Of a stretch of 64,000 nt of DNA, positions 1 through 60,951 are shown one piece after another. The translations under genes and the position numbers were made by a program. Under the pieces are notes generated by a model. It was given only the letters and a program-made list of their open reading frames with translations. It was not told where the DNA came from and searched no databases. This DNA comes from Desulfobacterales bacterium (GTDB lineage Bacteria; Desulfobacterota; UBA8473), in the NCBI GenBank assembly GCA_016209225.1, contig JACQWO010000003.1, positions 13,298-77,297 of the forward strand, given 5' to 3'. Within the stretch, counting starts at the first letter, position 1; each line of letters starts with the position of its first letter.

Positions 1-370
1 CTATCCGAGCTTTAATAGGGCGATAACCGGGCTTCGTTATAAGGCATTTTCATGTTTAGTCAAGCCGGTAGCAAAGAAAAAGCTTTGTCAGGTTGTTGAA
101 TCAGCAGTGAAAAAGAATTCCCTTGAGAAAGAAAAGATACTAAAAGAGACTGTTCCGAAAAAACTGAGGATTCCTTTAACTACTTGTAGTTAGATGTAAT
201 TTGTGATCATTCTAATAAAACTGCAATAAGCATTGTTTTTATGGTCTTTTGGTAAGGTGATTCTTGTAGAATCAAATAGTTACAGATAATCTTATATTAT
301 TTGTATTCTCTCTTTGTAACTCAATACAACCAATAGAGAATACATAATTAAAAATCAAAGGAGGTTTTAA

Positions 371-1537
371 ATGGATTTTTCTTACACGAAGGAACAAGAG
401 GTATTGAAGAATGTAGTGCGGGAATTTTGTGATAAAGAGGTAGCCCCAAGAGCAGCGGAATTTGATAGAACAGCGGAGTTTGACTACAGCATTATTGAAA
501 AGCTTTCCAAACAAGGACTCTTAGGTGTAATCATGCCCAAAGAGTACGGTGGCATGGGAGGCAGCCATGTAGATCAGGCGATAATCTGTGAAGAGATTGG
601 CCGGGATTCTTTGACGGCAATGGTGGCAACTAATATGGCGTGGTATATGGCATATGAGTGTTTGGTAGTCGGAACAGAGGAAAATAAAAAGAGATGGATT
701 CGGTATCTGTTTGATGGAAAAAAGATGGGCGCCCATGCCGGTACTGAGGCCGATGCAGGAACTGATGCAGCATCAGTCAGAACCTGGGCTAAGCTGGAAG
801 GGGATGAATGGGTCATCAATGGCACAAAATGGTTCGTTTCAAACCTTGGCAAGGCAGACTTCTATTTTATTACCCTGCGTACGGCTGATAGTCGTTACGG
901 TGGAATAAGCACAATACTGGTGGAAAAAGACACTCCCGGTATGACTATTGGTAGAAGAGTAGATCTTATAAGCAACCGGGCTATCAGCAATGGCGAGTTG
1001 ATTTTTGAAAATTGCAGAGTACCCAGAGAGAATTTGATTGGCAGACTCAACAAGGGTTTTCTCGACATGATGGTACTGTATGATGTAATAAGGCTTTACC
1101 TGGCTATAGGAGCAGTTGGAATAGCAAGGGGCGCCCTGGAAGAGTCCTTGAAATTTGCTCAGGAACGCCGACAGTTCGGTAAGCCTGTTGGGGAGTTCCA
1201 AATGATCAGAGCAATGCTTGCCGATATGGCTACAGAGATTGATGCTGCACGACTCATGACATACAGAGCCTTAGATATGGAAGAGAAGGGACTCAGACAT
1301 ACAAAGGAGACTTCTATGGCAAAACTCTATGCCTCCGAAATTGCTGACCGGGTGACCTATAAAGCCGTACAGATACACGGAGGATACGGACTTACGATGG
1401 AATTTCCTGTGCAGCGTTATTGGAGAGATGCTAGGCTTTGTTCTATAGGTGAAGGGACGAGTGAAATCCAAAGACTGATAATTGCTGCCGAACTGTTAAA
1501 GAGTCAGAATATCGTACTCGATTCGGCCCTTGATTAA
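371..1537 (+). CDS. acyl-CoA dehydrogenase
   Basis: 388 aa ORF with an N-terminal MDFSYTKEQ...FCDKEVAP region and a C-terminal ...YGGYG...EGTSEIQ signature typical of the ACAD family. A strong AAAGGAGG ribosome-binding site sits 8 nt upstream. Confidence 0.9.
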   Translation: MDFSYTKEQEVLKNVVREFCDKEVAPRAAEFDRTAEFDYSIIEKLSKQGLLGVIMPKEYGGMGGSHVDQAIICEEIGRDSLTAMVATNMAWYMAYECLVVGTEENKKRWIRYLFDGKKMGAHAGTEADAGTDAASVRTWAKLEGDEWVINGTKWFVSNLGKADFYFITLRTADSRYGGISTILVEKDTPGMTIGRRVDLISNRAISNGELIFENCRVPRENLIGRLNKGFLDMMVLYDVIRLYLAIGAVGIARGALEESLKFAQERRQFGKPVGEFQMIRAMLADMATEIDAARLMTYRALDMEEKGLRHTKETSMAKLYASEIADRVTYKAVQIHGGYGLTMEFPVQRYWRDARLCSIGEGTSEIQRLIIAAELLKSQNIVLDSALD

Positions 1538-1550
1538 ATGGTGGTATTCT

Positions 1551-2327
1551 ATGAATATAGTGGTTTGTGTGAAACAGGTGCCTCAAGAGATTCGGATAAA
1601 TAAAACAAAGGGCACTTTGATCAGGGATGGGATAAAAGGGGTTATTAACCCCTGTGACAAGAATGCAATAGAATTAGCGGTAACCTTGAAAGAGAAGCAT
1701 GGAGGTAAGATAACGCTTGTCTCTATGGGACCAAAGGATGTGGAAAATACCCTGACCCACGGGTTAGCCATGGGAGCGGATCAGGCGGTTCTTATCTGTG
1801 ACAGGGTATGTGCCGGTGCTGATACCCTGGCTACTGCGTTCGCTTTGGCAACGGTTATAAAAAAACTGGATGATGTTCAATTAGTGCTCTGCGGCAAAGA
1901 GACCGCTGACAGTGGTACGCAACATGTAGGGCCACAGGTTGCCCATTATCTGGGAATCCCACAGGTTACATATGTTGTAAACCTGTTAATTGAAGGCAGT
2001 AAAATACGGGCAAAAAGACAGTTGAAAGATGAATATGAGACCGTGGAAGCAGGGCTACCGGCTTTGGTTACTGTTGTTAAAGGGATAAATGAACCGAGGA
2101 TGCCGACCTATCTTGACATCTACGAAGCTTCAAAAAAGGATACTCATAAATGGTGTGCAGAAGATCTCGGTCTGAAAGAGGATGAGGTGGGCATCCAGGG
2201 GTCACCCACAAGGATTACTAAAGTCTTTGCACCGGAGGCCAAAAGGGAGTGTAAAATGCTCAGGGGTTCGATAGAGGATATATCCAGCAGTTTAGCCAAT
2301 GACCTAAAAAGTAAGGGATTAGTATGA
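1551..2327 (+). CDS. etfB: electron transfer flavoprotein beta subunit
   Basis: An internal Met gives the canonical EtfB N-terminus MNIVVCVKQVP. The ORF-track start at 1530 is probably too long. The gene is tightly coupled to the acd gene upstream. Confidence 0.9.
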   Translation: MNIVVCVKQVPQEIRINKTKGTLIRDGIKGVINPCDKNAIELAVTLKEKHGGKITLVSMGPKDVENTLTHGLAMGADQAVLICDRVCAGADTLATAFALATVIKKLDDVQLVLCGKETADSGTQHVGPQVAHYLGIPQVTYVVNLLIEGSKIRAKRQLKDEYETVEAGLPALVTVVKGINEPRMPTYLDIYEASKKDTHKWCAEDLGLKEDEVGIQGSPTRITKVFAPEAKRECKMLRGSIEDISSSLANDLKSKGLV

Positions 2328-3301
2328 AAGAAATGGACCGGTATAGAGGTGTTTGGGTATTTGCAGAATGGAAGGACAGCCAGGTAATAAAGGGTAGTCT
2401 TGAACTCTTGTCTTTGGGGCGAGGACTTGCCGATGAGCTTCAGGTAGAACTGTCGGTTCTTTTGATGGGGGATCGTTTAGGCGGCATTCCGGAGGAATTG
2501 ATATACTATGGGGCAGATGTAGTATATGTGATAGAGAACCCTATTCTTGAAAGGTATACTACATCTCCCTACCATAGAATCCTATGTGATTTGATCAGAG
2601 AAAACAAACCAGAGATAGTCCTCTTTAGCACCACGCATCTTGGTATGGATTTGGCTCCCAGGGTAGCCTGTGAACTGAAGACAGGCCTAAGCGCTCACTG
2701 TGTGGACTTAAAGATGGATAAAGAAAATAGACAGTTGCTTCAGATTTGCCCGTATTTTGATTATATGGCGACTATTGTAACCGATACAAGGCCGCAAATG
2801 GCTACTGTTCAGCCTGGCATAACCTCTCCACCAAGGCGAGATGATTCCAGGCAGGGAAAGACAGTAAGGGTTGAATTCAAGATAGAACCCGGAGATATTA
2901 AGATCGTTGAGGTGGAGGCAAAAAAGGAAGAGGATACCGAAAAGATCGAAGAAGCGGATGTTATTGTTGCCGTGGGCCGTGGGCTTAAAGATATGCGCTT
3001 GGCTGAGGAATTGGCTTCTGTTCTTGGGGGAGTCCTTGGTGCGACCCAACCCATTACCGAGGCCGGCCTGTTACAGGAATCTCGTATGATAGGACAAACA
3101 GGCAAGATCGTTCAGCCGAAGTTGTATATTGCCTGTGGAATTTCCGGTGCAGGGCAGCACATTGTAGGAATGCAAAATTCAGGCACTATCGTAGCCATAA
3201 ATACTGATGAAAAGGCCCCTATATTTAAGGTAGCCGATTATGGTATCGTTGGAGATGTTTCTAAAGTAATACCGGCACTCATTGAGTCTTTGAAAGGTTA
3301 G
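2324..3301 (+). CDS. etfA: electron transfer flavoprotein alpha subunit
   Basis: Overlaps the etfB stop. The ETF-alpha FAD-binding C-terminal region reads GISGAGQHIVGM. Confidence 0.9.
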   Translation: MKEMDRYRGVWVFAEWKDSQVIKGSLELLSLGRGLADELQVELSVLLMGDRLGGIPEELIYYGADVVYVIENPILERYTTSPYHRILCDLIRENKPEIVLFSTTHLGMDLAPRVACELKTGLSAHCVDLKMDKENRQLLQICPYFDYMATIVTDTRPQMATVQPGITSPPRRDDSRQGKTVRVEFKIEPGDIKIVEVEAKKEEDTEKIEEADVIVAVGRGLKDMRLAEELASVLGGVLGATQPITEAGLLQESRMIGQTGKIVQPKLYIACGISGAGQHIVGMQNSGTIVAINTDEKAPIFKVADYGIVGDVSKVIPALIESLKG

Positions 3302-3474
3302 AGGAGCGCCTCCATCCATCCGTCTTTACCTTTCTCCACCATTATATATGTCGTTCGTCTAACTCCGGTCACTCCTTATAAACCCATCTTCTAAATTAAA
3401 CCAAAAAATAAACTGTAATTCGGATTACTACCAAAATTAACCTTGCAAATTGAAAGTGTTTGTTTTAATATTCA

Positions 3475-4629
3475 ATGATGATAACACGAAAGGTACAAAA
3501 AACCGTTGAACTTTCTCTGAAACAATATCCTGTTGTTGGAATCCTGGGACCCCGTCAGGTTGGTAAGACGACCCTGGCAAGAGCCATACAAAGTATTCTG
3601 ATACAAAAATCTGTTTATTTAGATTTGGAATTGCCTTCGGATTTGAGTAAACTCCAAGATCCTGAATTGTATATGGGGCAGTTTAAAGATTGTCTTGTGA
3701 TTATAGACGAGATACAGAGAATGCCAAACCTGTTCCCGCTGATGCGGGCGCTGGTTGACCAAAAACGAGTGGCAGGAAGATTTCTTATCTTGGGTTCAGC
3801 ATCGCCGGAGTTGCTCAAACATGCATCAGAGAGTCTGGCGGGGCGCATTATTTACCACGAACTATCACCGCTGATTTTGGAAGAAACCGGTTATGAACGA
3901 ACACAGCAATTGTGGCTCCGGGGAGGCTATCCTCTAAGTTATTTAGCAAATACCGAAGAAGAGAGCATCTCCTGGCGGGAGGCTTTTATCAAGACTTATC
4001 TCGAGATGGACATCCCGCAATTGGGCATTCACGTACCGGCAACGCAGCTCAGAAGATTCTGGACCATGCTTGCTCATGTTCATGGTCAGCTATGGAACGC
4101 ATCACAGATTGCCAAAAGCCTTGGGGTTTCATCCCCCACGGTGCGAAATTATCTGGATATACTTGAAGATACATTCATTGTCAGAAGATTGCCGCCTTTT
4201 TATGCAAATATTAAGAAACGTTTGGTAAAATCCGCCAAGGTGTACATTCGGGATTCAGGCTTGCTTCATGCCTTGTTGAAAAATCGGACTTTGGATGATT
4301 TATACAGTCATCCTTCATCAGGCAATTCATGGGAGGGCTTCGTAATTGAGCAGATTATCGGCATAATCCCTGAATACTGGCAAAGCTTTTTTTATCGAAC
4401 AAACGCAGGGGCAGAAATTGATCTTTTGCTCCTTGATCACAGGAATGAATCAATCGCTGTAGAGATAAAGTATTCCCTGAGTCCGAAGGTTGAAAGAGGC
4501 TTCTGGAACGGTATGGAAGACTTAGGTTGCAAAAAGGGATTTGTCATTTATCCGGGAGATGAAATATACCCGATTGGTAAAGATGTTTTTGCCCTGCCAG
4601 TTAAAAATATGGGGAGAATTTTTGAGTAA
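3475..4629 (+). CDS. AAA+ ATPase with a C-terminal DUF4143-type PD-(D/E)xK-like nuclease domain
   Basis: The Walker A motif reads GPRQVGKTT. The C-terminal segment EIDLLLLD...AVEIKYS matches a D...E.K nuclease motif. The gene lies in an AT-rich accessory stretch. Confidence 0.75.
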   Translation: MMITRKVQKTVELSLKQYPVVGILGPRQVGKTTLARAIQSILIQKSVYLDLELPSDLSKLQDPELYMGQFKDCLVIIDEIQRMPNLFPLMRALVDQKRVAGRFLILGSASPELLKHASESLAGRIIYHELSPLILEETGYERTQQLWLRGGYPLSYLANTEEESISWREAFIKTYLEMDIPQLGIHVPATQLRRFWTMLAHVHGQLWNASQIAKSLGVSSPTVRNYLDILEDTFIVRRLPPFYANIKKRLVKSAKVYIRDSGLLHALLKNRTLDDLYSHPSSGNSWEGFVIEQIIGIIPEYWQSFFYRTNAGAEIDLLLLDHRNESIAVEIKYSLSPKVERGFWNGMEDLGCKKGFVIYPGDEIYPIGKDVFALPVKNMGRIFE

Positions 4630-24094: not shown

Positions 24095-24658
24095 ATGATA
24101 TACCAATTAAATGCCGATGTAAGAAATTTTGGGAAAACCATATCTAAACTCAGTGATGTGGATATATATACCTGTTATCAGTGCGGGAAGTGTACTGCCG
24201 GTTGTCCCATTGTGATGGAGATGAGCCATACCCCAAATCAAATAATGAGATTGATTCAACTGGGACTAAAAGAAGAGGTTTTGAATTCTCTGACACCCTG
24301 GTTGTGTGCCGCTTGCGAAACCTGTACAACCCGTTGCCCTAAAGGGGTGGACATCGCCAAGATTATGGATACCCTGAGGATACTTGCTCGCAAAGAGGGT
24401 TATCAGTCTAAGGAACCAAATGTAGTGAAGTTCAATGATATTTTCTTGAACTGTATAAAGGACAAGGGAAGATTGCAGGAGACGCATTTGGCTATGGTGT
24501 ATAACTTAAAAACCAAGCAGTTTTTTAAGGATGCTGATATAGGCCGGAAGTTATTTATGAAGGGAAAGATATCCCTTTCCAGTGATAAAATAAAAGGTAC
24601 GGATGCGATGAAGAGTATCTTTGAGAGATCAAGGGCGTTTTTGGGCAAAGGGGAATAG
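24095..24658 (+). CDS. hdrC: heterodisulfide reductase subunit C
   Basis: Two 4Fe-4S motifs, CYQCGKCTAGCP and CAACETCTTRCP. Confidence 0.85.
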   Translation: MIYQLNADVRNFGKTISKLSDVDIYTCYQCGKCTAGCPIVMEMSHTPNQIMRLIQLGLKEEVLNSLTPWLCAACETCTTRCPKGVDIAKIMDTLRILARKEGYQSKEPNVVKFNDIFLNCIKDKGRLQETHLAMVYNLKTKQFFKDADIGRKLFMKGKISLSSDKIKGTDAMKSIFERSRAFLGKGE

Positions 24659-24661: not shown

Positions 24662-25537
24662 ATGGTATATGGATATTATCCAGGCTGCTCCTCTCATGGT
24701 ACGGCCAAGGAATATGATATTTCAACAAAGAAAGTTTGTGAGAGATTAGGATTGAAACTGGAAGAAGTGAGAGATTGGAACTGTTGTGGTGCCTCGCCAG
24801 CCCATGCTACCAGTGAAGAACTCGCCCTGGCATTACCCTTCAGAAATCTGGTCCTGGCTGAGAAACAAGGTCTGGATAGCATAATGTCCACTTGTTCCGC
24901 CTGTTACAATCGCCTTAAAGTTGCCCATGAGACACTGAAAAAAGCTCCTGAGATATTGAATAGAATGAGCGAAATAGTTGGAGAACCTTATAATAAGACT
25001 CTTAAGGTTATTCACTTCCTGGATCTTATCTCGAAGGAGTTTGGTGTAGAGAAAATAAAGGAAAGTGTGGTAAAGCCTTTAACGGGTTTAAAGGCTGTAT
25101 CATATTATGGTTGCCTTTTGACAAGACCCCCAAAGCTGGTATCTATTGACCCGGATGGAGAAAATCCCACTATAATGGAGGAGATTATAGAGGCATTGGG
25201 GGCAGAATCACCTTATTGGTCTCACAAAACGGAGTGCTGTGGCGCCAGTTTTGCCCTGGATAGAACGGATATTGTCTTGAGGTTGAGCAACGAAATTCTA
25301 AAAGCTGCCAGGTTTGCTGATGCGGATTGCATTATTGTTGCCTGTCCTTTGTGTTTTGCCAACCTGGATATGAGACAGTCACAGATAGCTTCCAAATATG
25401 GTATTAATTATTCCTTACCTGTCTTATTTATTTCCGAGTTGATGGGTGTAGCTATAGGAATGGGCAATAAGGAACTTGGGATTGATAAGCATATTGTTAG
25501 TGCAAAGAATCTATTAAAAGAAAAGGATTTGATCTAA
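24662..25537 (+). CDS. hdrB: heterodisulfide reductase subunit B (two CCG domains)
   Basis: The two Cys-rich CCG motifs read CCGASPAHA...CSAC and CCGASFAL...CPLC. Confidence 0.9.
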   Translation: MVYGYYPGCSSHGTAKEYDISTKKVCERLGLKLEEVRDWNCCGASPAHATSEELALALPFRNLVLAEKQGLDSIMSTCSACYNRLKVAHETLKKAPEILNRMSEIVGEPYNKTLKVIHFLDLISKEFGVEKIKESVVKPLTGLKAVSYYGCLLTRPPKLVSIDPDGENPTIMEEIIEALGAESPYWSHKTECCGASFALDRTDIVLRLSNEILKAARFADADCIIVACPLCFANLDMRQSQIASKYGINYSLPVLFISELMGVAIGMGNKELGIDKHIVSAKNLLKEKDLI

Positions 25538-25585: not shown

Positions 25586-25741
25586 GATGAAGTCGTAAAA
25601 AGTCAAAAATCAGATGGCACAGTAAAAAGCTCTAGATGCAGCAAGGCGCGCAAATCCAAAGGAATGAGGCGTACTTACCTGCACGCTGCAATGACTGAGG
25701 ATGCAGCGGAACGCCGCAGATGGACTTTTTACAAAGCCGTC
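25586..25741 (+). repeat. MITE-like element, copy 3 (diverged, about 85% identity; target-site duplication AAAGAA)
   Basis: AAAGAA hexamers lie at 25580-25585 and 25742-25747. The element sits between hdrB and hdrA, 17 nt upstream of the hdrA GTG start. Confidence 0.7.
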
Positions 25742-25758
25742 AAAGAAGGGGTGTCACT

Positions 25759-27729
25759 GTGTCAAAAATTGGAGTATTTATCTGTCACTGCGGTGTCAAT
25801 ATCTCAAGCACGGTAGATGTAGAAAAGATTACTGAAGAGTTGGCCAAAGAAGATGGGGTGGCCTTCGCAACAGAATATAAGTACATGTGTTCTGACCCAG
25901 GGCAGAAGATCATCAAGGACGCCATTAAAGAGCACAACCTTGACGGAATAGTGGTAGCCTCCTGCTCTCCCAGATTACATGAGAGAACATTCCAGTTGTG
26001 TATAGAGGCAGGCGGTCTGAACAGATACAAACTCGAGATGGCCAATATTCGAGAGCAGTGTTCCTGGGTACATAAAGACAAAGAATTCGCAACAGAAAAG
26101 GCTAAAGACCTGATCAAGATGGCTGTAGCCAAAGTTCGAAAGAACCAGCCTCTTACCCGGTTTTCCATCCCGGTTTTTAAAAAGGCACTGGTAATCGGTG
26201 GAGGTATTGCCGGGATGCAGGCATCCATAGACATCGCCAAGGCTGGATACAAAGTCACCTTAGTGGAAAGGACTCCGACTATTGGCGGGAGAATGGCGCA
26301 ACTGGACAAGACATTTCCTACCTTAGACTGCTCTGCCTGAATACTTACACCCAGGATGGTGGAGTCATCCCAAAACGAAAATATAGAGATACTTACTTAT
26401 TCAGAGGTTGAAGAAGTCAGTGGATATATAGGCAACTTTGATGTAAGGATTCGCAAAAAGGCCCGTCTCGTTGACATGAAGAAGTGCACAGGATGTGGAA
26501 CCTGTTATCAGAAATGCCCTGTAAAGGTTCCCAGTGAATTCGATATGGAGACAGGCATGAGAAAGGCCATATATATCCCCTTTCCTCAGGCTGTTCCGAA
26601 TGTGCCTGTGATCGATAAGGTAAACTGCAGGATGTTTACCAAGGGAAAATGCCAGATTTGTCAGAAGCTCTGTCAGGCAGAGGCAGTAGATTACGAACAG
26701 GAAGACGAGGTCATTGAAGATAAATTTGGTGCCATTGTAGTGGCAACGGGGTACGACCTTTTCGATGCCAGTGTCTACGGTGAGTATGGTGGTGGAAGGT
26801 TTAAGGATGTTATTAGCGGACTCCAACTGGAGAGGCTGATAAGCCCGGCCGGCCCCACAGGGGGTCATATAGTTAGGCCTTCAGATGGCAAGGAACCGAA
26901 GAATGTTGTCTTTATCCAGTGTGTTGGATCTAGGGATCCTGAAAAAGGATTTCCTTATTGTTCCAGCGTGTGTTGCATGTACACAGCGAAACATGCGGTA
27001 TTGCTTAAGGAACATATACCCGATGTTCAGACGAACATCTTCTATATGGATATCAGATCAGCGGGGAAGAACTATGAGCAGTTTGTGCAGCGAACAATGG
27101 AACAATACGGTGCGTTGTATATCAGAGGAAGGGTCTCAAAGATTTATCAGCGAGGGGATAAATTAATAGTTAAAGGGGCAGATACCCTGGCAGGCAGCCA
27201 GGTAGAGGTAGAGGCGGATTTAGTTGTGCTGGCTACGGCGATAACTGCGCGCCACGATTCAAAGGAATTAGCCAAAATCCTGGGTATCCCTTATGATCAG
27301 TTTGGATTCTTCACGGAGTTGCACCCAAAACTGGCTCCGGTTGAAACGGTCACATCCGGTGTCTTTCTGGCAGGTGCCTGTCAGTCTCCTAAAGATATTC
27401 CAGATACTGTCGCTGCTGCCAGCGGCGCTGCAGTGAAGGTTGCAGCCCTTTTCAGCGGTGACTTTCTGTCGATGGAGCCACTAGTCTCAACTATAGATAC
27501 CTCTGTCTGTTCTATGTGCAAGGCATGTATTGAGGTATGTCCTTACAAAGCTATCCAGGAAGAAGAGATTACCCTACGGGATGGAACCAAGAAAAAGCAG
27601 CTCAAGGTACTGGAAAGCGTATGTCATGGGTGTGGGGCATGTGTTTCCACCTGCAGATCTTCCTGTATTATGCTGAAAGGGATGACCGACGAACAGATCT
27701 TTGAGGAGTTGATGGCAGTAGCTCAGTAA
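25759..27729 (+). CDS. hdrA: heterodisulfide reductase subunit A, selenocysteine-containing (Sec encoded by TGA 26338-26340)
   Basis: ORFs 25720-26340 and 26356-27729 share a frame and are separated only by TGA. The TGA falls where Cys-containing HdrA has the second Cys of FPTLDCS-x-C-ILTPKMVE. The true start is probably GTG 25759 (MSKIGVFICHCG), with AAGGGG as ribosome-binding site. The FAD site reads GGGIAGM and several 4Fe-4S motifs are present. Confidence 0.8.
26354..26370 (+). other. candidate bacterial SECIS-like hairpin (GGATG-GUGGAGU-CATCC) 14 nt downstream of the hdrA UGA
   Basis: Five bp stem with a 7 nt loop containing GG and U, at about the spacing seen for bacterial SECIS elements. 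The stem is short. Confidence 0.35.
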
Positions 27730-27842: not shown

Positions 27843-28280
27843 ATGGAAGAAACAAAATGGGAACCAAAGGTAGTGGGGTTTTTGTGTCACTGGTGTAGTT
27901 ATGCCGGCGCAGACCTGACCGGTTCAGCTCGCATGGAATATCCCCATAACATAAGGATCATAAGAGTTCCCTGTTCTGGAAGGATAGACCCTATGTTTAT
28001 TCTAAGGGCACTGCAAAACGGACTTGACGGTGTTTTGGTTTCTGGTTGTCACCCGGGGGATTGCCATTATCAGTCTGGGAATTTTCATGCAAGAAGAAAA
28101 TTTGCAGTGACCAGGAAGCTCCTTGAATACGTCGGGATTGAACCGGAGAGGGTTCAGTTTAGCTGGGTTGCTGCATCTGAAGGACCTAAAATGGCTCAGG
28201 TAGTGAAGGAATTTGTGGAGGGAGTGAGGAAGGTAGGTCCCAACAGACTTTTTAAGGATGAGATAAAAGATGGAGAATAA
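27843..28280 (+). CDS. mvhD: methyl-viologen-reducing hydrogenase delta subunit homolog (MvhD/FlxD)
   Basis: 145 aa ORF with the MvhD Cys pattern FLCHWCSYAGADL...RVPCSGR...SGCHPGDCHY. Confidence 0.85.
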   Translation: MEETKWEPKVVGFLCHWCSYAGADLTGSARMEYPHNIRIIRVPCSGRIDPMFILRALQNGLDGVLVSGCHPGDCHYQSGNFHARRKFAVTRKLLEYVGIEPERVQFSWVAASEGPKMAQVVKEFVEGVRKVGPNRLFKDEIKDGE

Positions 28281-29220
28281 ATTAAAGGAAGAGGCCAGGA
28301 AGCTATTAAAGGAAGGTAAAGTTGACTACATAGTGGGGTACGGAAAGGGAACCGTTAAGTTTAGAACTTCCCCATTGATAACTAATAAAGAAGAGGATAT
28401 TGAAGGCCTAGTTATTAATCCTTTTATAGCAAACAATCTGAGCAGATACCCTGCTGAGATAAAAGGGAAGTTAGGAATAGTAGTAAAGGGTTGCGACTCC
28501 AGGTCTCTTGTTAGCCTTATACAGGACAACAAAGTGAAGAGGGATGACATTGTAATATTGGGAGTCCCCTGCGAGGGAGTGGTTGACATAAAGAAATTAG
28601 TGGAACAAATCGGTGCAGATATTGATCAGGTAAAGGAGATAGATAAGGAAGGCGATAACCTTATTGTAAAAATGGATGGTTCAAAAAAGACAGTTCTCTT
28701 TGGAGATGTGATATTTGACAAGTGTTTTGGGTGTGAGTATCCAACCCCTCTCGAATACGACATACTCTTAGGCAGTGAAGTATCTCCAAGGGTTGAGTTA
28801 GAAAAGAGCCTGAAGAAGATAAAAGAATTTGAAGATATAAATGCTCCGGAGAGATGGAGATATTGGAAGGAACAGTTCAGTAAATGTATTCGCTGCTATG
28901 CCTGCAGAAATGTCTGTCCTGCATGCTTCTGCGAAAGATGTTTTGTCGATGTAAACATCCCGCAATGGATTACTACGTATGGAAGTTGGCAGGACAATCT
29001 CGTATTTCAATTGATAAGAACCCTCCATGTTGCAGGGAGGTGTTCAGACTGTGGAGAATGTGAACGGTCATGCCCTGTGGGGATCACTTTGAGAAGTTTG
29101 CAGAGGAAGATGGTGGAAGAGGTCAAAGGCCTTTTCAATTACGAGACAGGTGTGGATAAGGATGCTCCCCCGGTCTTTACCCATTATGAGGCTACAGATC
29201 CAGAGGAATTTATTAAATAA
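28270..29220 (+). CDS. iron-sulfur protein of the Flx module (FlxC-like)
   Basis: 316 aa ORF overlapping the mvhD stop. The C-terminal 4Fe-4S motifs read CIRCYACRNVCPAC and CSDCGECERSCP. Confidence 0.6.
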   Translation: MENKLKEEARKLLKEGKVDYIVGYGKGTVKFRTSPLITNKEEDIEGLVINPFIANNLSRYPAEIKGKLGIVVKGCDSRSLVSLIQDNKVKRDDIVILGVPCEGVVDIKKLVEQIGADIDQVKEIDKEGDNLIVKMDGSKKTVLFGDVIFDKCFGCEYPTPLEYDILLGSEVSPRVELEKSLKKIKEFEDINAPERWRYWKEQFSKCIRCYACRNVCPACFCERCFVDVNIPQWITTYGSWQDNLVFQLIRTLHVAGRCSDCGECERSCPVGITLRSLQRKMVEEVKGLFNYETGVDKDAPPVFTHYEATDPEEFIK

Positions 29221-29235
29221 GGTAACTACTTAGGT

Positions 29236-29400
29236 GGATAGGCTGTAGGCAGTTAGCCTGTAGGAAAAAATAGGAAATTGCATTTGAGTTGGATGTTCCC
29301 TAATGCGATTAGAAAATGGTGGAGACCGAGAAGGTTCTGAGCGCCTTGATTCGGTCAATGCATGACTAACAGCCTTCAGGCTTCAGCCTAAACAACCTGA
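29236..29400 (+). promoter_or_regulatory. second copy of the AGCCT/AGGCT array, split by an approximately 100 bp insertion, upstream of the flxB-like gene
   Basis: GGATAGGCTGTAGGCAGTTAGCCTGTAGG at 29236-29264 and TAACAGCCTTCAGGCTTCAGCCTAAACAACCTG at 29368-29400 align to 24003-24055. The array ends 25 nt before the ATG. Confidence 0.4.
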
Positions 29401-29425
29401 GTAGTTACAAATAAGAGAGATAACT

Positions 29426-30439
29426 ATGGGTTATAAGAAGATCAAAAAAGACCAACTGAATACATTTCTTAGCGAACTGAGCAAGGACTATACAGTAGTT
29501 TTGCCTTCCCGATCAGGAGGACAGGTAGTTTTCGCCCCCTGGGATGGTAAAAATACGGATTTTCTTGACTGGTATAAAAATACAATTATACCCCCTAAAG
29601 CCCTTTTTTTCCCTCCTGTAGAGGAGATGTTTCGTTTTCGTAAGGGGGAAGAGGGATACGAGATAGAGGAGTTAATGCCTGATAAAAGGCAGCAGATTAT
29701 CTTCGGCATAAGGCCATGTGATGCCAGGGCTTTAAAGATCATAGATATGTTATTTGCCGATACTTATAAGGATCCTTATTACCTCAGGAGAAGGGAAAAT
29801 AGTCTTCTTGTCGGTTTGAGCTGTAACGAGCCTTGCGATACCTGTTTTTGCGCCTCCCTGGATATCTCTCCAGGGCAATCTGAAGATGTAGATATATTGT
29901 GTACGGATGTTAGCGATAACCTTTTAATAGAGGCTATATCCGAGAAGGGAAGTAATCTACTATCTGAGATGAGTGGGCTTTCTGATGCCGGCAGTGAGGA
30001 AGAGTCAAAGGCAAAAGAGATGAGGAAATCGGCAAAAGAGAAAATAGCCAGACAGATAAACTTATCCGGGTTACAGGAGAAGATGAGGTCAAATTTTGAA
30101 AACAGGGAGTATTGGGAGAAGGCATCAAAGAAATGCATGGCATGCGGTATATGCACCTATGTATGCCCAACCTGTCATTGCTTTGATATAAATGATGAAA
30201 ATAGGAAGAAGGAGGGCAAAAGGGTAAGGAGCTGGGATAGCTGTAAGTTCCCATTGTTTACCAGAATGCCTATGGAGAACCCCCGTCATGAAAAATGGAG
30301 GCGGATGAGACAGAGGTATCACCATAAGTTTGAATATTATCCTATGAATTTCGGTACCATAGCCTGTACCGGATGTGGAAGGTGCATAAGAGAATGTCCT
30401 GTGAATGTGGATGTTACAGAGATAATAGGAGGGATATAG
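29426..30439 (+). CDS. AsrA / sulfhydrogenase-beta-like iron-sulfur protein (FlxB-like)
   Basis: 337 aa ORF with the family N-terminus (...PPKALFFPPVEE...) and the C-terminal 4Fe-4S motifs CMACGICTYVCPTCHC and CTGCGRCIRECP. Confidence 0.65.
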   Translation: MGYKKIKKDQLNTFLSELSKDYTVVLPSRSGGQVVFAPWDGKNTDFLDWYKNTIIPPKALFFPPVEEMFRFRKGEEGYEIEELMPDKRQQIIFGIRPCDARALKIIDMLFADTYKDPYYLRRRENSLLVGLSCNEPCDTCFCASLDISPGQSEDVDILCTDVSDNLLIEAISEKGSNLLSEMSGLSDAGSEEESKAKEMRKSAKEKIARQINLSGLQEKMRSNFENREYWEKASKKCMACGICTYVCPTCHCFDINDENRKKEGKRVRSWDSCKFPLFTRMPMENPRHEKWRRMRQRYHHKFEYYPMNFGTIACTGCGRCIRECPVNVDVTEIIGGI

Positions 30440-30455
30440 GAGCTTTAGTTTAACG

Positions 30456-30501
30456 TCTCGGAATTTCTATCCCGATAAAATTGGGGCCTGAAATTCCGAG
30501 A
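30456..30501 (+). other. 12 bp perfect-stem hairpin (TCTCGGAATTTC...GAAATTCCGAGA) between the flxB-like and flxA-like genes
   Basis: No T-run follows it, so it is probably an intra-operon RNA structure rather than a terminator. Confidence 0.4.
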
Positions 30502-30604
30502 TAATTCAGAATTCAGGAGTCAGAATCCAGAAGAAAAGCGTATTCTTAGAGGGGAACTATAGTCCATGATGGTTGCGGTTGAAAAGGATAAAGGAGATTC
30601 GTTG

Positions 30605-31441
30605 ATGGAAGGTGACAATGTTTATATACCTCACGTAATGAAAATTGAAAAGGTAATCGAGGAGACCCAGAATATTAAGACCTTTCATTTTAATTTCAAG
30701 GACGAAACCCAGAAGGCTCAATTCAGCTTTAAATCAGGGCAATTCGCTGAATACTCTGTATTTGGGGTAGGAGAAGCCACCTTCTGTATATCTTCAAGTC
30801 CCACAAGGATGGACCACTTAGAATTTAGTGTAATGAGAGTAGGAAAGGTAACCCAGGCTATCCATGAACTCCAGGAAGGAGACGAGATAGGTTTTAGGGG
30901 ACCATACGGGAACTGGTTTCCTTTAGATTCGATTCAGGGGAAGAATCTTGTCTTTGTTGGTGGAGGCATTGGTTTGGCGCCTTTGAGGTCTTTGATCTGG
31001 AATGTCCTCGATAACCGTGATATTTACAAGGACATAGTTATCCTATACGGTGCAAGAAGCCCAGCAGACCTCTCTTTCAAATATGATTTAGAGGCATGGG
31101 ACAAAGATGATAGAGTCAATATGTACACCACTGTGGATAGGGGAGATGAGAGCTGGACTGGCAGAGTGGGACTTATCCCGCCGGTTTTAGAAGAGATAGG
31201 CCCTTCTCCAGAAAATACTGTGGCAATTACCTGCGGTCCTCCCATAATGATAAAATTTACACTGCAATCGTTAGAAAAATTGGGGTTTACCCATGATCAG
31301 ATAATAACCACCCTTGAGATGAGAATGAAATGCGGTATAGGTAAATGTGGAAGATGCAACATTGGGAATATATACGTATGTAAAGATGGTCCTGTCTTTA
31401 CATATTCCCAGATCCGTAATTTCCTTTCTGATGAGTTTTAA
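30605..31441 (+). CDS. FAD/NAD(P)-binding oxidoreductase with a C-terminal 2Fe-2S cluster (AsrB / sulfhydrogenase-gamma / FlxA-like)
   Basis: An FNR-like fold carrying the FAD-site motif RVGKVT, followed by the C-terminal motif CGIGKCGRCNIGNIYVC. I chose the start at 30605 because of its AAAGGAG ribosome-binding site; the ORF track starts at 30566. Confidence 0.7.
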   Translation: MEGDNVYIPHVMKIEKVIEETQNIKTFHFNFKDETQKAQFSFKSGQFAEYSVFGVGEATFCISSSPTRMDHLEFSVMRVGKVTQAIHELQEGDEIGFRGPYGNWFPLDSIQGKNLVFVGGGIGLAPLRSLIWNVLDNRDIYKDIVILYGARSPADLSFKYDLEAWDKDDRVNMYTTVDRGDESWTGRVGLIPPVLEEIGPSPENTVAITCGPPIMIKFTLQSLEKLGFTHDQIITTLEMRMKCGIGKCGRCNIGNIYVCKDGPVFTYSQIRNFLSDEF

Positions 31442-48073: not shown

Positions 48074-48583
48074 TCATTTTTTCTCCACTCCAAAATGCCT
48101 TTCCCATTCATCCAAAAGCTGATGCTCTTTTGGACATTCCAGATAGTTTTCTATTCTTCCTATATTAAAATCCCCCAAGGTTTCCACTCCAAAATTTCTA
48201 CTCCAGAGCTTTTTAATTTTGTGTTGTTTTTGAATATCTTTATATCTGCCCATGATCAAGAACGATGTCCTCTCCCTTATATCCTTAACTACATTAGGTA
48301 TGAAATGTGTGGGCTTGGTGCCCAGAATCAGATGGGTATGATTTGGGTGAATAACCAAACCGAAAAGCTCATATCCCTTTGTGGTGGTAACCTCTTTAAA
48401 GATTGCCTCCAATTCTCTTGATATTTCATGGGTAATTATTGGCAGATATCTGGGGGTAAAAAGGATTAGGTGGTAATAGATTCTGTAAACGACGTTTAAA
48501 GATTTCTCCCAATGAATCTCTCTTACGGGCTGGAAATAGGACGACAGGATAGTGTTTATCATAATCTCCTCGCAAAAGATCAA
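48074..48583 (-). mobile_element. tnpA: IS200/IS605-family element: Y1 HuH transposase TnpA
   Basis: HuH reads HPNHTHLIL, the N-terminal beta-strand YHLILFTPRY is present, and the C-terminus reads LWSRNFGVETLG...ENYLE. The gene sits 18 nt after the pyrF stop. Confidence 0.75.
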
Positions 48584-48939: not shown

Positions 48940-50355
48940 ATGACAATGGATCAAAGTAAAGATAATGCCATTGAGAGACTTTTCCATGAAGTGCAAGACA
49001 CCAAGTATCAAAGGTACCCGCATAATGGACTCTGTGTTGTAATAATATCTGGTCTAAATAACACCAGTAAAGCGGCACTCTTAAACAGAGATCATATCAT
49101 TTGGCACTTCCCTTTCACTATTGGAAGAACCTCACCGGAGGACAGATTTGCTTTTAAGTGACAGGATCTAATTCTTGCTGATAACAGGCCCTACCGTATT
49201 TCACGACAACACCTTTCCGTAGAAAGACGCGAAGATCAAATAGCTCTGGTCGATAGGAACAGCAAATTCGGATCGTGGGTTAACAATACTTTACTTGGGA
49301 AGAATGCAGCAGGTGGTAAGGAGGAGATAACGCTGAGGTATGGGGAAAATGAGGTCATTTTAGGAGGGCAAACTTCTCCCTTTATTTTTCAAATGCGAGT
49401 CATAAAAAGCGAGGACGTAGATGTTCTTTATGACTATGTTAAATGGCGGGATCATATGATCCCTGTCGCAGCACTTTACATCCGACTCTGTCATGCCACA
49501 AGTGATATCATTACCTCTTCGAACTATGATACCCACGATCGGATACAAAGGGCTTTGGATCTAGTAGTGGGTATCATTGCTTATCCAGAAACTATAGACA
49601 TGCTGTATTATTACTCTGCCCATCCTGATACGTTTGAAGACTTAATTGTTGCTCACTCGGTCAATGTAGCTATCTATACCATTAAAATGGCTCTTAGTTT
49701 ATCCTACTCCAAGGATGAGGCAACAATAATAGGCGTAGCCGCCTTACTTCATGATATTGGTTTGTATGATATTCCTAGAAGTATCATAGACAAAAGGAGA
49801 ATTATCTCCAAAAAAGAATACGATGTTATAAAGAAACATTCGAACATAGGTTACGAAAAACTTCTAGAAGTTGCCAATGATTACAAGCTTATTCCCCAGA
49901 TTGCTCTTGAACATCATGAACGTGTGGATGGCAACGGTTATCCCAACGGGATTAAGAAACTCTCGGATAATACAGAACTTATTGGGATGATAGATTTCTT
50001 TGAGGCAGTGACCCATTATCGTCCCCAAAGGGGCCCAATAACTCCTCATGAAGGCATTAAAATACTATTGGACCTGAGACATAGCGTGTTCAGCATTAAC
50101 CTGACTAAGGCTTTCCTCAATGTGTTCTCCACCTTTCCTGCATATAGTGTTATTCGTTTGAATTCGGGAGAAATAGGACAGGTAGTAAAAGTCAAGATAA
50201 ACTGGCCCCTCAGACCTACGGTCAGGATGCTCTTTAGAAACGATGGTCAACCGATAGAGGGAGAAAAAGAGATTGACCTCGTACAGAATAAAGACCTTTT
50301 CATTGCCAAAGATATCTCAGATCGTGTATTCATCGATAATTATTTCAAGTTATAG
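48940..50355 (+). pseudogene. FHA-domain / HD-GYP phosphohydrolase gene interrupted by an in-frame TGA at 49159-49161
   Basis: ORFs 48940-49161 and 49393-50355 share a frame, and the intervening 231 nt are open. The TGA falls inside an FHA domain (...FTIGRTSPEDRFAFK-TGA-QDLILADNRPYRISRQHLSV...). Confidence 0.5.
49393..50355 (+). CDS. HD-GYP domain protein (minimal ORF downstream of the TGA)
   Basis: The HD motif (LLHDIGL) and the GYP motif (HHERVDGNGYP) are both present. Confidence 0.7.
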   Translation: MRVIKSEDVDVLYDYVKWRDHMIPVAALYIRLCHATSDIITSSNYDTHDRIQRALDLVVGIIAYPETIDMLYYYSAHPDTFEDLIVAHSVNVAIYTIKMALSLSYSKDEATIIGVAALLHDIGLYDIPRSIIDKRRIISKKEYDVIKKHSNIGYEKLLEVANDYKLIPQIALEHHERVDGNGYPNGIKKLSDNTELIGMIDFFEAVTHYRPQRGPITPHEGIKILLDLRHSVFSINLTKAFLNVFSTFPAYSVIRLNSGEIGQVVKVKINWPLRPTVRMLFRNDGQPIEGEKEIDLVQNKDLFIAKDISDRVFIDNYFKL

Positions 50356-53177: not shown

Positions 53178-54836
53178 TCAATTTATTAATTTATAGACTA
53201 AGACATAACTCTTGTCACCTTTAAAGATTGAGCCAATAGAGGTTTGGATAATTCCAACCACTAATTCATCTTTTCCGTCGTTATCTACATCCTTAATTTG
53301 AAAGTCCGCAATATACCCATAAATCTTTTTTGTTCTCCAATTCTCTGATAAACCCAGACCATCCCAGGTTAGACTATAAATTTCGCTGTCTTTATACATT
53401 CTAGTTCTTTCAAATAACTTTCCAGCACCTGGAATATTTCTTACAACAACTACTTCATTTTCTCCTTTATGATTTTGAACCAGTATCCGATTTTGAAGGT
53501 ACAATCTAGTTTCAAGCCCTTCAGTGGCATCAGTTGGCTTTGTACCGCTTAGATACTTAGTTAAAAAGTTCTTTGTCCCTCCATATATTTCATCACTCTT
53601 CCACATTAACTCTCCGCTATTAGAAAAAACCTTCAAGTTGTCATAATTATCGATCAGAACAATCTCCTTTTTTCCGTCTTTATCAACATCAATCAAGTTG
53701 AAACCATACACTATGGCACCCGGGGGGAGGGAAATATTTTGTTCTTCCATGTATTTGTTGTCTTTCCATATCAGTTGAGTTACACCACCGTAAAAAATAC
53801 CATCCAGCCCTACCTTTTGGCCAAGAAGCATGGAACCATTTTTGGACGTCTCAATCACCTTAAAAAAATAGTTGATGCCTGTTGCAATCTTTACAAAATC
53901 TCCTTTTTGGAACTCTATAACAAAGGAGTCCAGTCTGGTATCGACAAGGTTGGTTACAAAGATCTCTGAAATTCCATTTTTATTAATATCGGCAACATCA
54001 ATGGATAGATAGTTATCAGATTTCTTTCCTTTAATCTTTTTTATCAATGTCAGCCTATCTTCTGAGTATCTATATATCGATATGCTGTTATTGTCCATAA
54101 CAACCGTTTCATTCTTTCCATCCCCATCCACATCTCCAACAGCAATACCTTTAATCTCCAGGTCCAGTCTTTGACTCTTCCAAAATCCCTTCTTGAGACG
54201 CAGAGGATCACCAGACATTACAAACTCAGAACCGGTATCGGAAGAAGTGCCTTTCCCCTTTTTAGAAACAAGAAATTCTGACATAAAAGCAGATGCCTCT
54301 GCACTGGCAGTAGGAGGTGGAGGAGAAGATGAATAGACAGGATAAGGTTTACCTGTAATCCTGGAATTGGCCTTCAAAGCAAACTCACTGATTTCAGGAA
54401 TTACATTATCCAGTCCTTTGCTTGTGGCGAATAGAGACGTAACAGACTTTTTCTCCTTCAGGTCAAACATCTTGGCATCAATACTAACACTCTCACCTAT
54501 CTTAGTCAGGCTGCCCGAAATAATAAAATCCACACCAAGCTGAGTGCCGATCTTCTTTATTACTTCTTCAGTTATGGGACTCTCGTGAATTCGAGACAGG
54601 ACTTCATTTACTTGTATACCCTCAAGAACTACAACCTTATCCTCTACAGAAATCCTGGATGTAAGCATATCCAGGATCCCCTTCTTCAGATAATCCAAAT
54701 TTTCTGAGCTGTTTATCTGGAATGGAAGCACAGCTACCTTCACTATGTTATCAGCATAAGTGATTGAGTGAAATATAAAGAGATATAATAGGATTAAGGA
54801 AGATAGTTTAATAAATTTTAGAGTCACCTTCTTCAT
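53178..54836 (-). CDS. exported FG-GAP repeat protein
   Basis: A signal peptide plus repeated DVDGDGKNE, DVDKDGKKE and DVDNDGKDE calcium-binding FG-GAP motifs. Confidence 0.7.
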   Translation of the reverse strand: MKKVTLKFIKLSSLILLYLFIFHSITYADNIVKVAVLPFQINSSENLDYLKKGILDMLTSRISVEDKVVVLEGIQVNEVLSRIHESPITEEVIKKIGTQLGVDFIISGSLTKIGESVSIDAKMFDLKEKKSVTSLFATSKGLDNVIPEISEFALKANSRITGKPYPVYSSSPPPPTASAEASAFMSEFLVSKKGKGTSSDTGSEFVMSGDPLRLKKGFWKSQRLDLEIKGIAVGDVDGDGKNETVVMDNNSISIYRYSEDRLTLIKKIKGKKSDNYLSIDVADINKNGISEIFVTNLVDTRLDSFVIEFQKGDFVKIATGINYFFKVIETSKNGSMLLGQKVGLDGIFYGGVTQLIWKDNKYMEEQNISLPPGAIVYGFNLIDVDKDGKKEIVLIDNYDNLKVFSNSGELMWKSDEIYGGTKNFLTKYLSGTKPTDATEGLETRLYLQNRILVQNHKGENEVVVVRNIPGAGKLFERTRMYKDSEIYSLTWDGLGLSENWRTKKIYGYIADFQIKDVDNDGKDELVVGIIQTSIGSIFKGDKSYVLVYKLIN

Positions 54837-54848
54837 AATTCTCCACCC

Positions 54849-55250
54849 CTATTTCTCGCTTATCTCTATTAATACTCCAAAAGTTGATTTGGGGTGCAAA
54901 AAGGCTATCTTTGCCCCTCCTGCTCCCCTTCGGGGAGTTTCGTCAATCAGCTTCACACCCTTTTCTTTTAGCTCTCTCAATGCCTCTTCAATGTTTTCTA
55001 CTTGAAAGCAGATATGCTGAATCCCCTCTCCTCTCTTTTCGATAAACTTAGCTATAGCTCCCTCTGGAGACGTGGATTCCAACAACTCCAGTTCACTGTC
55101 TCCTATTGGTAGAAATACGGTAGTAGCCTTTTGCTCTTCCACGGTTTCTGATCCAACAGACTTCATGCCCAGTATATCTTCATAGAACTTCAAAGCCGGA
55201 GCACAGCTTTTTACTGCTATACCGATATGATCAATCTTCTTTATCTTCAT
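54849..55250 (-). CDS. mce: methylmalonyl-CoA epimerase (VOC/glyoxalase family)
   Basis: MKIKKIDHIGIAV...HICFQV identifies the family. The start is at the internal Met. Confidence 0.8.
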   Translation of the reverse strand: MKIKKIDHIGIAVKSCAPALKFYEDILGMKSVGSETVEEQKATTVFLPIGDSELELLESTSPEGAIAKFIEKRGEGIQHICFQVENIEEALRELKEKGVKLIDETPRRGAGGAKIAFLHPKSTFGVLIEISEK

Positions 55251-55354
55251 TTGTTCTCCCTTTTCACTTCGTGAGCATTCACCTATCACCCGTCAGCTTT
55301 CAGCAAAAAAACAAATCCTTTAACCTTTCACCTTTTGCCTTGTTTATTATAACA

Positions 55355-56320: not shown

Positions 56321-56359
56321 AGTAGCTCCCCAATCTATTCTGTTAAATATACCAAATAT

Positions 56360-56782: not shown

Positions 56783-56815
56783 ATCGCCCCTTTTATTGCA
56801 TAGATCAAAGAACCT

Positions 56816-58471: not shown

Positions 58472-58536
58472 TGCTAAATCCTCCCACGAGGGCTTCTATA
58501 CTCAAAAAATTGACCGTCGGTCTTTCTGTGCCTTCA

Positions 58537-60931: not shown

Positions 60932-60951
60932 TTTGTCCCCTCCTTAAGTAG

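Follow-up and report, generated by a model that had tools for sequence, protein, structure and literature searches.

An in-frame UGA in hdrA of a Desulfobacterales metagenome-assembled genome is very probably decoded as selenocysteine

The hdrA gene and its operon

The window, that is the whole stretch of 64,000 nucleotides analysed here, contains an hdrA gene of 656 codons on the forward strand (25759..27729), with a GTG start, a TAA stop and an internal UGA as codon 194. The gene was delimited by translation, by phmmer against the PDB and by Pfam and NCBIfam models. The list of open reading frames breaks it into 25720-26340 and 26356-27729. As the initial annotation had stated, and as we found in the sequence, the two pieces belong to one hdrA, share a frame and are parted only by the TGA at 26338-26340. 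The translated peptide around this codon is DKTFPTLDCSA-(TGA)-ILTPRMVESS. A Shine-Dalgarno-like GAAGGGG (25745..25751, forward strand) was read from the sequence 7 nt 5′ of the GTG. GTG 25759, which the coordinates of the initial annotation also imply, is the likely start; in a 90%-identical relative (L001) the gene call of the homologue begins at the corresponding Val codon.

In the PDB, phmmer matched HdrA chain 5odc_A (E = 4.7e-217, query residues 3-651 against chain residues 5-646), and four further HdrA structures matched with E < 1e-190. This full-length likeness spans all four HdrA domains: the N-terminal Fe-S domain, the thioredoxin-reductase-like FAD domain, and the inserted and C-terminal ferredoxin domains. 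Pfam assigned Pyr_redox_2 and Fer4 to the product. The NCBIfam model HdrA2 (NF040770) gave 820 bits (E = 1e-246) against an equivalog cut-off of 1100, and the model of methanogen HdrA (NF041778) gave 625 bits (E = 1e-187) against a cut-off of 1400. Because both scores lie under the equivalog cut-offs, the product is a member of the HdrA family rather than a demonstrated CoB-CoM heterodisulfide reductase.

The partner genes hdrB, hdrC and mvhD flank hdrA, and all genes of the cluster are on the forward strand. The hdrC-like gene (24095..24658) encodes a 4Fe-4S dicluster protein (Pfam Fer4_17 and Fer4_8; NCBIfam CoB_CoM_SS_C, E = 4e-22, below the cut-off), and the hdrB-like gene (24662..25537) encodes a protein with two CCG domains (Pfam CCG, E = 1e-25; NCBIfam CoB_CoM_SS_B, E = 1e-57, below the cut-off); both are in the same operon as hdrA. 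The mvhD/flxD-like gene (27843..28280) is of the Cys form (CHWC), has no internal TGA and matches Pfam FlpD with E = 6e-55. It corresponds to positions 642-774 of the fused HdrA2 model, so that the last 135 positions of NF040770 are covered by this separate gene. Pfam and NCBIfam further identified a Fer4/FrhB-like electron-transfer gene (28270-29220), a Fer4_22 electron-transfer gene (29426-30439) and a FAD/NAD-binding gene with an Fe-S domain (30566-31441). The three genes, within 28270..31441, together resemble flxC, flxB and flxA. By domain content the cluster has the genes of the FlxABCD-HdrABC type, namely hdrABC, an MvhD-like protein, two Fe-S proteins and a FAD/NAD(P)-binding subunit, and the same gene order also follows the closest Cys-type hdrA. 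Because hdrA sits in this hdrCBA-mvhD-flxCBA-like operon, the product of the operon is probably an NAD(P)H-linked flavin-based electron-bifurcating complex. Such a complex would not be a CoM-S-S-CoB reductase like that of methanogens.

In public annotations, hdrA of close relatives is still split, for example as KAF0121027 and as 457-residue fragments at JGI and ENA. In the genome studied here, hdrB and mvhD carry the accession numbers MBI4618620 and MBI4618622, with the one slot MBI4618621 between them, and exact protein look-up found neither hdrA fragment on record from NCBI. Because one slot is free and no NCBI record of a fragment was found, the numbering suggests that MBI4618621 is a single annotated hdrA product.

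The in-frame UGA and the conserved Cys column

The UGA at 26338..26340 (forward strand), the presumed Sec codon of residue 194, follows a TGC for Cys191 (26329..26331, forward strand), the first Cys of a C-S-A-U (CxxU) motif. In the alignment with HdrA of Methanothermococcus thermolithotrophicus (5odc_A), Cys191 falls on Cys194 and the UGA on Cys197, the second Cys of DCSIC. This column holds Cys, as DC[AS][AS]C-I, in 118 of the 120 best full-length homologues. The initial annotation had placed the TGA at the second Cys of a CxxC motif, and this placement is correct. It had also spoken of a redox Cys. The Cys position stands, and "redox" is too simple a description of it: in the crystal structure Cys197 is reported to coordinate the partner HdrA's N-terminal [4Fe-4S] cluster (PMC9012536), and a 2026 cryo-EM paper proposed a Cys-Sec197 selenylsulfide relay and called the role unresolved (PMC13518236). 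The same position is experimentally Sec (Sec197) in Methanococcus maripaludis HdrA (PMC13518236), and a published family table gives HdrA as CxxU (PMC13188914).

The TGA is kept in 88 metagenome contigs of the same hdrA subfamily. A search of species genomes with KTFPTxDCxx-TGA-I, a pattern which itself fixed the stop as TGA, found at least 120 loci, and the listed matches included Desulfobacterota, Chloroflexota, Bacillota, Planctomycetota and other phyla. The frame stays open past the TGA in 119 of the 120 listed genome loci, the remaining one being a spurious match. Because the same codon occupies the same column in all these species genomes and metagenome contigs, with a long open frame after each, the coincidence of TGA and conserved Cys column is far beyond chance.

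Such a distribution speaks against an error of sequencing or assembly as the source of the TGA, and against a nonsense mutation of recent date that has made hdrA a pseudogene in this organism. Single-base TGA artefacts or variants do exist in the same contig, the TGA at 49159 being one. TGA 26338, however, was recovered twice more from the same strain, in independent Logan assemblies of runs SRR12113399 and SRR12113406. Over 3.4-3.5 kb these agree with the window save for one base elsewhere, and both read TGA here. L001 also keeps the TGA at dS > 1, and dN/dS against this relative was 0.053 upstream of the TGA and 0.034 downstream. An error or a pseudogene is effectively refuted by the independent assemblies and the dN/dS values, and we regard it as extremely improbable.

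A systematic scan of the window for TGAs with at least 60 open codons on each side gave 26338 and 49159 as the only ones within real genes, the same pair that had been noticed initially. The accompanying suggestion, that recoding in hdrA raised the chance of read-through at 49159, is refuted: the codon is GGA (Gly) in an independent assembly otherwise identical over 3107 nt. TGA 49159 was rejected as a candidate Sec codon: there is no Cys close by, no hairpin lies where a SECIS would be expected, the codon interrupts an FHA domain, and it is GGA in that assembly. It is a single-base variant only and should not be annotated as recoding.

The codons that follow the UGA of hdrA were compared in 71 sequences. 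Five codons, for ILTPR, separate the UGA from the next ATG; their amino acids are invariant, while the third positions of these codons vary (1.1-1.4 bits), and the stretch is therefore translated. This result weighs against a gene that is truly split, in which translation would stop at the UGA to give a 193-residue protein and restart at ATG 26356 to give a 457-residue protein. ORF callers yield exactly those two products, and HdrA homologues without the N-terminal domain exist in nature (PMC9012536). Against a split gene, besides the translated ILTPR codons, each of the 119 listed in-frame loci, found with a pattern that required TGA, has TGA as its stop at the Cys column, which fits recoding and not a domain boundary. 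ATG 26356 moreover lies inside the conserved hairpin described below, and no Shine-Dalgarno sequence precedes it. We consider a split gene very unlikely.

A SECIS-type hairpin downstream of the UGA

A SECIS-type hairpin was located within the coding sequence at 26354..26370 (forward strand) by RNAalifold and covariation. Its 5′ arm is GGAUGGU (26354-26360), its loop GGA (26361-26363) and its 3′ arm GUCAUCC (26364-26370). The hairpin had been drawn initially from GGATG (26354-26358) and CATCC (26366-26370); these are complementary, and the stem begins at the 14th base after the TGA. The location was thus retained and the drawing amended to GGAUGGU-GGA-GUCAUCC, a stem of 7 bp with two G.U pairs. 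The hairpin can also be drawn with 6 bp and a 5-nt loop, or with 5 bp and a 7-nt loop.

Published criteria for a bacterial SECIS (PMC13188914) are an upper stem of 4-16 bp that carries an apical loop of 3-9 nt, a G at one of the first two loop positions, 16-37 nt between UGA and loop, and an MFE of -7.5 kcal/mol or lower. The hairpin agrees with three of the four. It has 7 bp and a 3-nt loop; the loop is GGA in the window and in 62 of 63 relatives, with GUU in the other one; and 20 nt (26341-26360) separate the UGA from the loop. The energy falls short: it is -3.2 kcal/mol for the isolated hairpin, -4.2 in context and -4.8 as 6 bp with a 5-nt loop, and the best fold of 26338-26400 reaches -7.0. 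The commonest variant of the subfamily has -8.1 kcal/mol alone and -9.2 in context, which clears -7.5, and the window hairpin is the weakest variant in its subfamily.

In the window sequence alone the hairpin is not beyond chance: one as good or better occurs at 11% of the control positions within this gene, and the RNAfold z-score for 26338-26400 was +0.36. The helix of the RNAfold MFE structure, 26343-26351/26358-26365 (-7.0 kcal/mol), was rejected as unconserved: 71% of its cells were paired, equal to shuffles, and two of its pairs are broken in 57-58 of 63 relatives. Run on the 63 relatives, RNAalifold predicted exactly the 26354-26370 helix (columns 17-33). All 441 cells were paired (100%), and two pairs had changed on both sides, pair 22-28 being AU, GU or CG and pair 23-27 CG, UG or UA. 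Among 500 shuffles, none had as high a paired percentage, as many cells changed on both sides or as high a covariation score. Third-codon-position entropy was 0 bits at the fourfold sites +18, +24, +30 and +33, against 1-1.9 bits at flanking third positions, so that covariation and constrained synonymous sites both speak for this helix. It is the comparison with relatives alone that makes the hairpin significant.

Of the Sec-type loci, 87% have a hairpin with SECIS geometry and an energy of -7.5 kcal/mol or lower; the figure for control positions within these genes was 4% (Mann-Whitney p = 2.5e-76). It was found in none of the Cys-type homologues, a small control set of eight genes (two from the loci compared and six of the closest Cys-type genes). 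The Sec-type hdrA set of about 200 loci carries several unrelated hairpin sequences at one position. The amino acids under the hairpin are RM[TV]ESS in Sec forms versus KMV[DTQ]V in Cys forms, and the protein sequence here seems visibly dictated by the SECIS. These loci offer a clean illustration of a SECIS constraining the codons that it overlaps, and even their amino acids. A search with Rfam found no family at gathering thresholds in the whole window except tRNA-Met, and at E <= 10 on 26300-26440 it returned just meaningless lncRNA and snoRNA matches.

Selenocysteine insertion and comparison with known systems

Taken together, the evidence indicates, with a probability of about 0.93, that hdrA of this Desulfobacterales genome is a single gene for a selenoprotein in which the UGA is recoded as Sec via the downstream hairpin. 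One hdrA with CxxU and a SECIS-type hairpin at the bacterial position was also the core of the initial annotation, and the Cys column, the conservation and the covariation support it. The two reading frames, 25720-26340 and 26356-27729, should be merged as one selenoprotein gene.

In the proposed mechanism, when a ribosome reaches the UGA at 26338-26340, the hairpin 13 nt downstream (26354-26370) would act as a bacterial SECIS. SelB.GTP.Sec-tRNASec would bind the hairpin and deliver Sec into the A site in place of release factor 2. The predicted product is a 656-residue HdrA with C191-x-x-U194. By analogy with Cys197/Sec197 of methanogen HdrA, residue 194 may contact the partner protomer at its N-terminal [4Fe-4S] cluster, form a Cys-Sec bridge near the FAD, or both.

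The UGA implies a selenium-dependent, Sec-decoding organism, and it follows soundly from the Sec reading that the genome must encode selABCD. No tRNA-Sec was found in the 64-kb window (ARAGORN and Rfam gave tRNA-Met alone), nor were selA, selB or selD found there by NCBIfam and Pfam on 20 of the remaining large ORFs. Those 20 ORFs gave housekeeping, acyl-CoA and B12-mutase genes. That the Sec machinery was not located within the window would be compatible with decoding of the UGA as another residue, either Trp or Cys by a near-cognate tRNA or through a reassigned UGA (codes 4 or 25). Against this, TGA is the ordinary stop of 17 of the 60 candidate genes in the window; the genetic code is therefore the standard one, and reassignment was dropped. 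The constrained hairpin, which has SECIS geometry and a loop that starts with G and is present in the subfamily and in most Sec-type loci and absent from the Cys-type genes, also argues against non-Sec decoding, as does the experimental Sec at the same position in M. maripaludis (PMC13518236). We give decoding as another residue very little credence.

Within the Sec reading, insertion may be inefficient or conditional, because the window has the weakest SECIS of its subfamily, with tandem G.U/U.G pairs by the loop (-4.2 versus -9.2 kcal/mol in context). The full-length HdrA would then be made alongside a separate N-terminal Fe-S domain of 193 residues, in a ratio set by selenium supply. This elaboration seems doubtful. 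At least one further lineage has the weak tandem G.U/U.G variant too.

A Sec codon in hdrA is an already known feature and no new biology. Sec-HdrA has been reported in Deltaproteobacteria and Clostridia (PMC1794560), and Desulfobacterium autotrophicum, of the same order as the window host, has Sec-HdrA with the full sel machinery (PMC2702500); together with the M. maripaludis result (PMC13518236), these reports bear out the initial view of hdrA as a rediscovered selenoprotein. Deltaproteobacterial Sec-HdrA/HdrL are found in Syntrophobacter fumaroxidans (seven copies), Syntrophus aciditrophicus, Desulfotalea psychrophila and D. autotrophicum (HdrA1/A2/L1/L3). The window gene is like them in family, CxxU position, recoding within the ORF and mvhD directly downstream (PMC1794560; PMC2702500), and it differs in that its mvhD is of the Cys form. 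Unlike the larger Sec-hdrA groups of the genome scan, whose hairpins are CUGGUCG-AGGU-CGGCCGG or GGAUGCC-GGUC-GGCAUCC, the subfamily of the window has DCSA-U-ILTPRM[TV]ESS and the hairpin GGAUGNN-GGA-NNCAUCC.

Methanogen HdrA (M. maripaludis, Sec197; M. thermolithotrophicus, Cys197, PDB 5ODC) shares the N-terminal Fe-S domain, and the UGA falls on its residue 197. Archaeal recoding differs in that the SECIS is in an untranslated region and not in the ORF (PMC13188914), and unlike methanogens this bacterium has no reason to reduce CoM-S-S-CoB. In common with the bacterial SECIS (bSECISearch model; E. coli fdhF prototype), the hairpin is an in-ORF stem-loop just 3′ of the UGA with a G-first loop and a G(G/U)N core closed by a pair. 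Unlike the consensus, it has a loop of just 3 nt and an energy above the -7.5 kcal/mol cut-off. The NADH dehydrogenase/heterodisulfide reductase FlxABCD-HdrABC (Hdr/Flox) of Desulfovibrio vulgaris has the same gene content as the operon in the window (PMC5947623); the window operon differs in its order, hdrCBA-mvhD-flxCBA-like.

An hdrA frame interrupted by a single TGA

As suggested in the initial annotation, the analysis supports hdrA as a selenoprotein gene whose UGA is recoded via a downstream SECIS-type hairpin, a reading held with high confidence (probability roughly 0.93). Translation of 25759-27729 (+) gave a single frame for a 656-residue protein, with TGA 26338-26340 as the one interruption. 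The split into ORFs 25720-26340 and 26356-27729 was as described earlier and recurs in the mechanical ORF list. GTG 25759, 7 nt past GAAGGGG, is the probable start, and the orthologue in the comparison contig L001 is called from the equivalent codon. A six-frame scan of the window for TGA with at least 60 open codons on either side turned up just two within real genes, 26338 and 49159. The merged hdrA gene model is a useful output of this work; the window proteins are MBI4618616-645 in the NCBI MAG record.

The TGA at 26338 was retained in two independent Logan assemblies from different sequencing runs (SRR12113399 and SRR12113406), which agreed with the window across 3.4-3.5 kb spanning hdrA apart from a single mismatch away from the TGA. 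It was also present in L001, whose protein is ~90% identical. Between the window and L001, dN/dS was 0.053 before the TGA and 0.034 after it at saturated dS (1.3-1.5), indicating that translation and constraint extend over both halves of hdrA. With a degenerate DNA pattern encoding DCSA-TGA-ILTPRM, 88 metagenome contigs matched, and KTFPTxDCxx-TGA-I matched at least 120 species-representative genome loci from Desulfobacterota, Chloroflexota, Bacillota, Planctomycetota and others. Of the 120 listed matches to the latter, 119 kept an open frame past the TGA; the exception, locus L017, was rejected as a spurious match. Since TGA is the ordinary stop of 17 of 60 candidate window genes, the genetic code is standard and the recoding site-specific.

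Alternatively, translation could end at the TGA and re-initiate at ATG 26356, the first codon of the second ORF. Against this, the five codons between TGA and ATG encoded I-L-T-P-R without exception across 71 distinct sequences while their third positions varied (1.1-1.4 bits), indicating that the stretch is translated in frame. The GCC (Ala) codon directly 5′ of the UGA (26335-26337) had a third-position entropy of 0.46 bits across the 71 relatives, where most codons nearby had 1-1.9 bits; codon context may be affecting recoding here.

When the TGA was translated as Cys, the protein matched 5odc_A, the crystallised HdrA of Methanothermococcus thermolithotrophicus, over its whole length (E 4.7e-217), and four further solved HdrA chains at <1e-190. 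The TGA aligned with Cys197 of 5odc_A, the second Cys of D-C194-S-I-C197, and DC[AS][AS]C-I occupied the site in 118 of the best 120 full-length database matches, so the alignment given in the initial annotation was right. Judged from the alignment, the motif is CxxU, as the HdrA selenoprotein family is listed in a 2026 review (PMC13188914). "Redox Cys" is too simple a label: Cys197 has been assigned as a ligand to the N-terminal [4Fe-4S] cluster in the partner protomer (PMC9012536), and a 2026 M. maripaludis structure has density for a Cys-Sec197 bridge whose role its authors call unresolved (PMC13518236).

The downstream hairpin

The GGATG and CATCC arms noted previously are present at 26354-26358 and 26366-26370, but the hairpin is best described as a 7-bp stem with a GGA loop and is weak alone. 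Its energy was only −4.2 to −4.8 kcal/mol, and an equal or better hairpin occurred at 11% of control positions within hdrA. From the window sequence alone RNAfold favoured another helix (−7.0 kcal/mol, z-score +0.36), which was rejected as it is not conserved in relatives.

In 63 distinct relatives of the subfamily the helix was 7 bp long and its loop GGA (GGAUGNN-GGA-NNCAUCC), exactly as predicted by RNAalifold. Standard pairs filled 441 of 441 cells (63 relatives × 7 bp); in alignment columns, pair 22-28 was AU, GU or CG and pair 23-27 was CG, UG or UA. None of 500 shuffles reached the paired percentage, the cells changed on both sides or the covariation score, and pairing fell to 29-58% when partners were slid out of register. 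Third-position entropy was 0.0 bits at +18, +24, +30 and +33 (in Arg, Thr/Val, Ser and Ser codons, each with fourfold or higher degeneracy) and 0.31 bits at +27, compared with 0.8-1.9 bits at nearly all remaining third positions from −87 to +150. The search pattern did not cover positions 24-33 and allowed any base (N) at position 18. Amino acids over the hairpin change (T/V/M/L, S/A/L), yet the pairs are preserved.

The published bacterial SECIS model (PMC13188914, Fig. 2A) has a loop of 3-9 nt, a stem of 4-16 bp, a G within the first two positions of the loop, 16-37 nt from UGA to loop and an MFE ≤ −7.5 kcal/mol. The window hairpin agrees in loop and stem size, in its G residues (GGA) and in spacing (20 nt) but not in energy, whereas the subfamily consensus reaches −8.1 alone and −9.2 in context. 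Because both inner pairs wobble, the window carries the weakest subfamily variant, found also in one other lineage (locus L169). A further useful output is the hairpin as corrected here: 26354-26370, a 7-bp stem and GGA loop whose energy is sub-threshold in this strain.

At the same site, other HdrA/HdrL subfamilies among the genome loci have stems of unrelated sequence, for example CUGGUCG-AGGU-CGGCCGG, GGAUGCC-GGUC-GGCAUCC and GAGGCC-GGUC-GGUCUC. SECIS-geometry hairpins of ≤ −7.5 kcal/mol occurred at 87% of Sec-type loci versus 4% of 3482 same-gene control positions (p 2.5e-76). None of eight Cys-type homologues reached −7.5 kcal/mol and five had no such hairpin at all. These eight genes read KMV[DTQ]V versus RM[TV]ESS in Sec forms; over window 26353-26370, R-M-[T/V]-E-S-S of the Sec type stands against K-M-V-[D/T/Q]-V in the closest Cys-type loci, L210-L215. 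The hairpin appears to determine amino acid identities in addition to synonymous sites.

A Sec-type hdrA/hdrL was also seen on a 6.6-kb Candidatus Bathyarchaeota MAG contig (JAPUUO010000083.1; L010:4759-4794), with a bacterial-style hairpin in the ORF, CUGGUCG-AGGU-CGGCCGG, as in many Desulfobacterota. As archaea normally carry SECIS in the UTR (PMC13188914), either the contig is bacterial and was mis-binned or the gene was transferred.

The TGA at 49159

The initial annotation argued that Sec decoding raises the odds of read-through at this second TGA, a side claim that is refuted here, which is a useful output in itself. TGA 49159-49161 interrupts the FHA domain of an FHA and HD-domain gene (48940-50355; 471 residues), and its flanking sequence held no nearby Cys and no hairpin at SECIS distance. 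The Logan contig L216 differed from the window at a single base in 3107 nt, G for T at 49159, and belongs to SRR12113399, a run in whose assembly the hdrA TGA is retained; its codon is GGA (Gly) and the 471-residue gene is intact. The TGA is thus a single-base variant (nonsense polymorphism) or an assembly error, and selenocysteine was rejected. An IS200-like (Y1_Tnp) transposase (48074-48583, −) lies between pyrF and this gene, a location shared by four independent Logan assemblies.

Operon setting and known Sec-HdrA systems

By Pfam and NCBIfam, hdrA neighbours hdrC, hdrB, mvhD, two Fe-S proteins and an FAD/NAD-binding protein, and the closest Cys-type hdrA, L210, is followed by genes in matching order. 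NCBIfam placed the protein in the HdrA/HdrA2 family yet under equivalog cut-offs (625 vs 1400 bits; 820 vs 1100). The fused HdrA2 model was covered at 1-640 by HdrA and at 642-774 by MvhD, the downstream gene supplying its last 135 positions, so the window pair is a split version of fused HdrA2. mvhD (FlpD family; 27843-28280) is a Cys form, FLCHWCSY; this family is often a selenoprotein, and the gene adjoins Sec-hdrA. The sole difference from both Logan assemblies over 3.4-3.5 kb of the hdr-flx operon was A for C at 29086, a codon first position in a Fer4/FrhB-like gene (28270-29220).

The flanks (1-4629 and 53178-63629) hold acyl-CoA dehydrogenases (371-1537, 59789-60931), the ETF alpha subunit (2324-3301), MeaB (55355-56320), methylmalonyl-CoA mutase (56816-58471) and a gene resembling HMG-CoA synthase/BbsA (62214-63629). 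These are catabolic surroundings of a fatty-acid or propionate type, in keeping with an Hdr complex linked to NADH or ETF.

No tRNA-Sec and no sel gene were found within the 64-kb window; by analogy with the family, SelB would bind and selenium would be incorporated at the hdrA UGA. Sec-HdrA itself is already known, and the initial annotation rightly spoke of a rediscovery: reports from 2006 onwards place it in Syntrophobacter, Syntrophus, Desulfotalea and several Clostridia (PMC1794560), and it is also reported in Desulfobacterium autotrophicum, together with selA, selB, selC and selD (PMC2702500). The gene content of the window operon equals that of the Hdr/Flox-type bacterial complex of Desulfovibrio and Syntrophobacter (PMC5947623).
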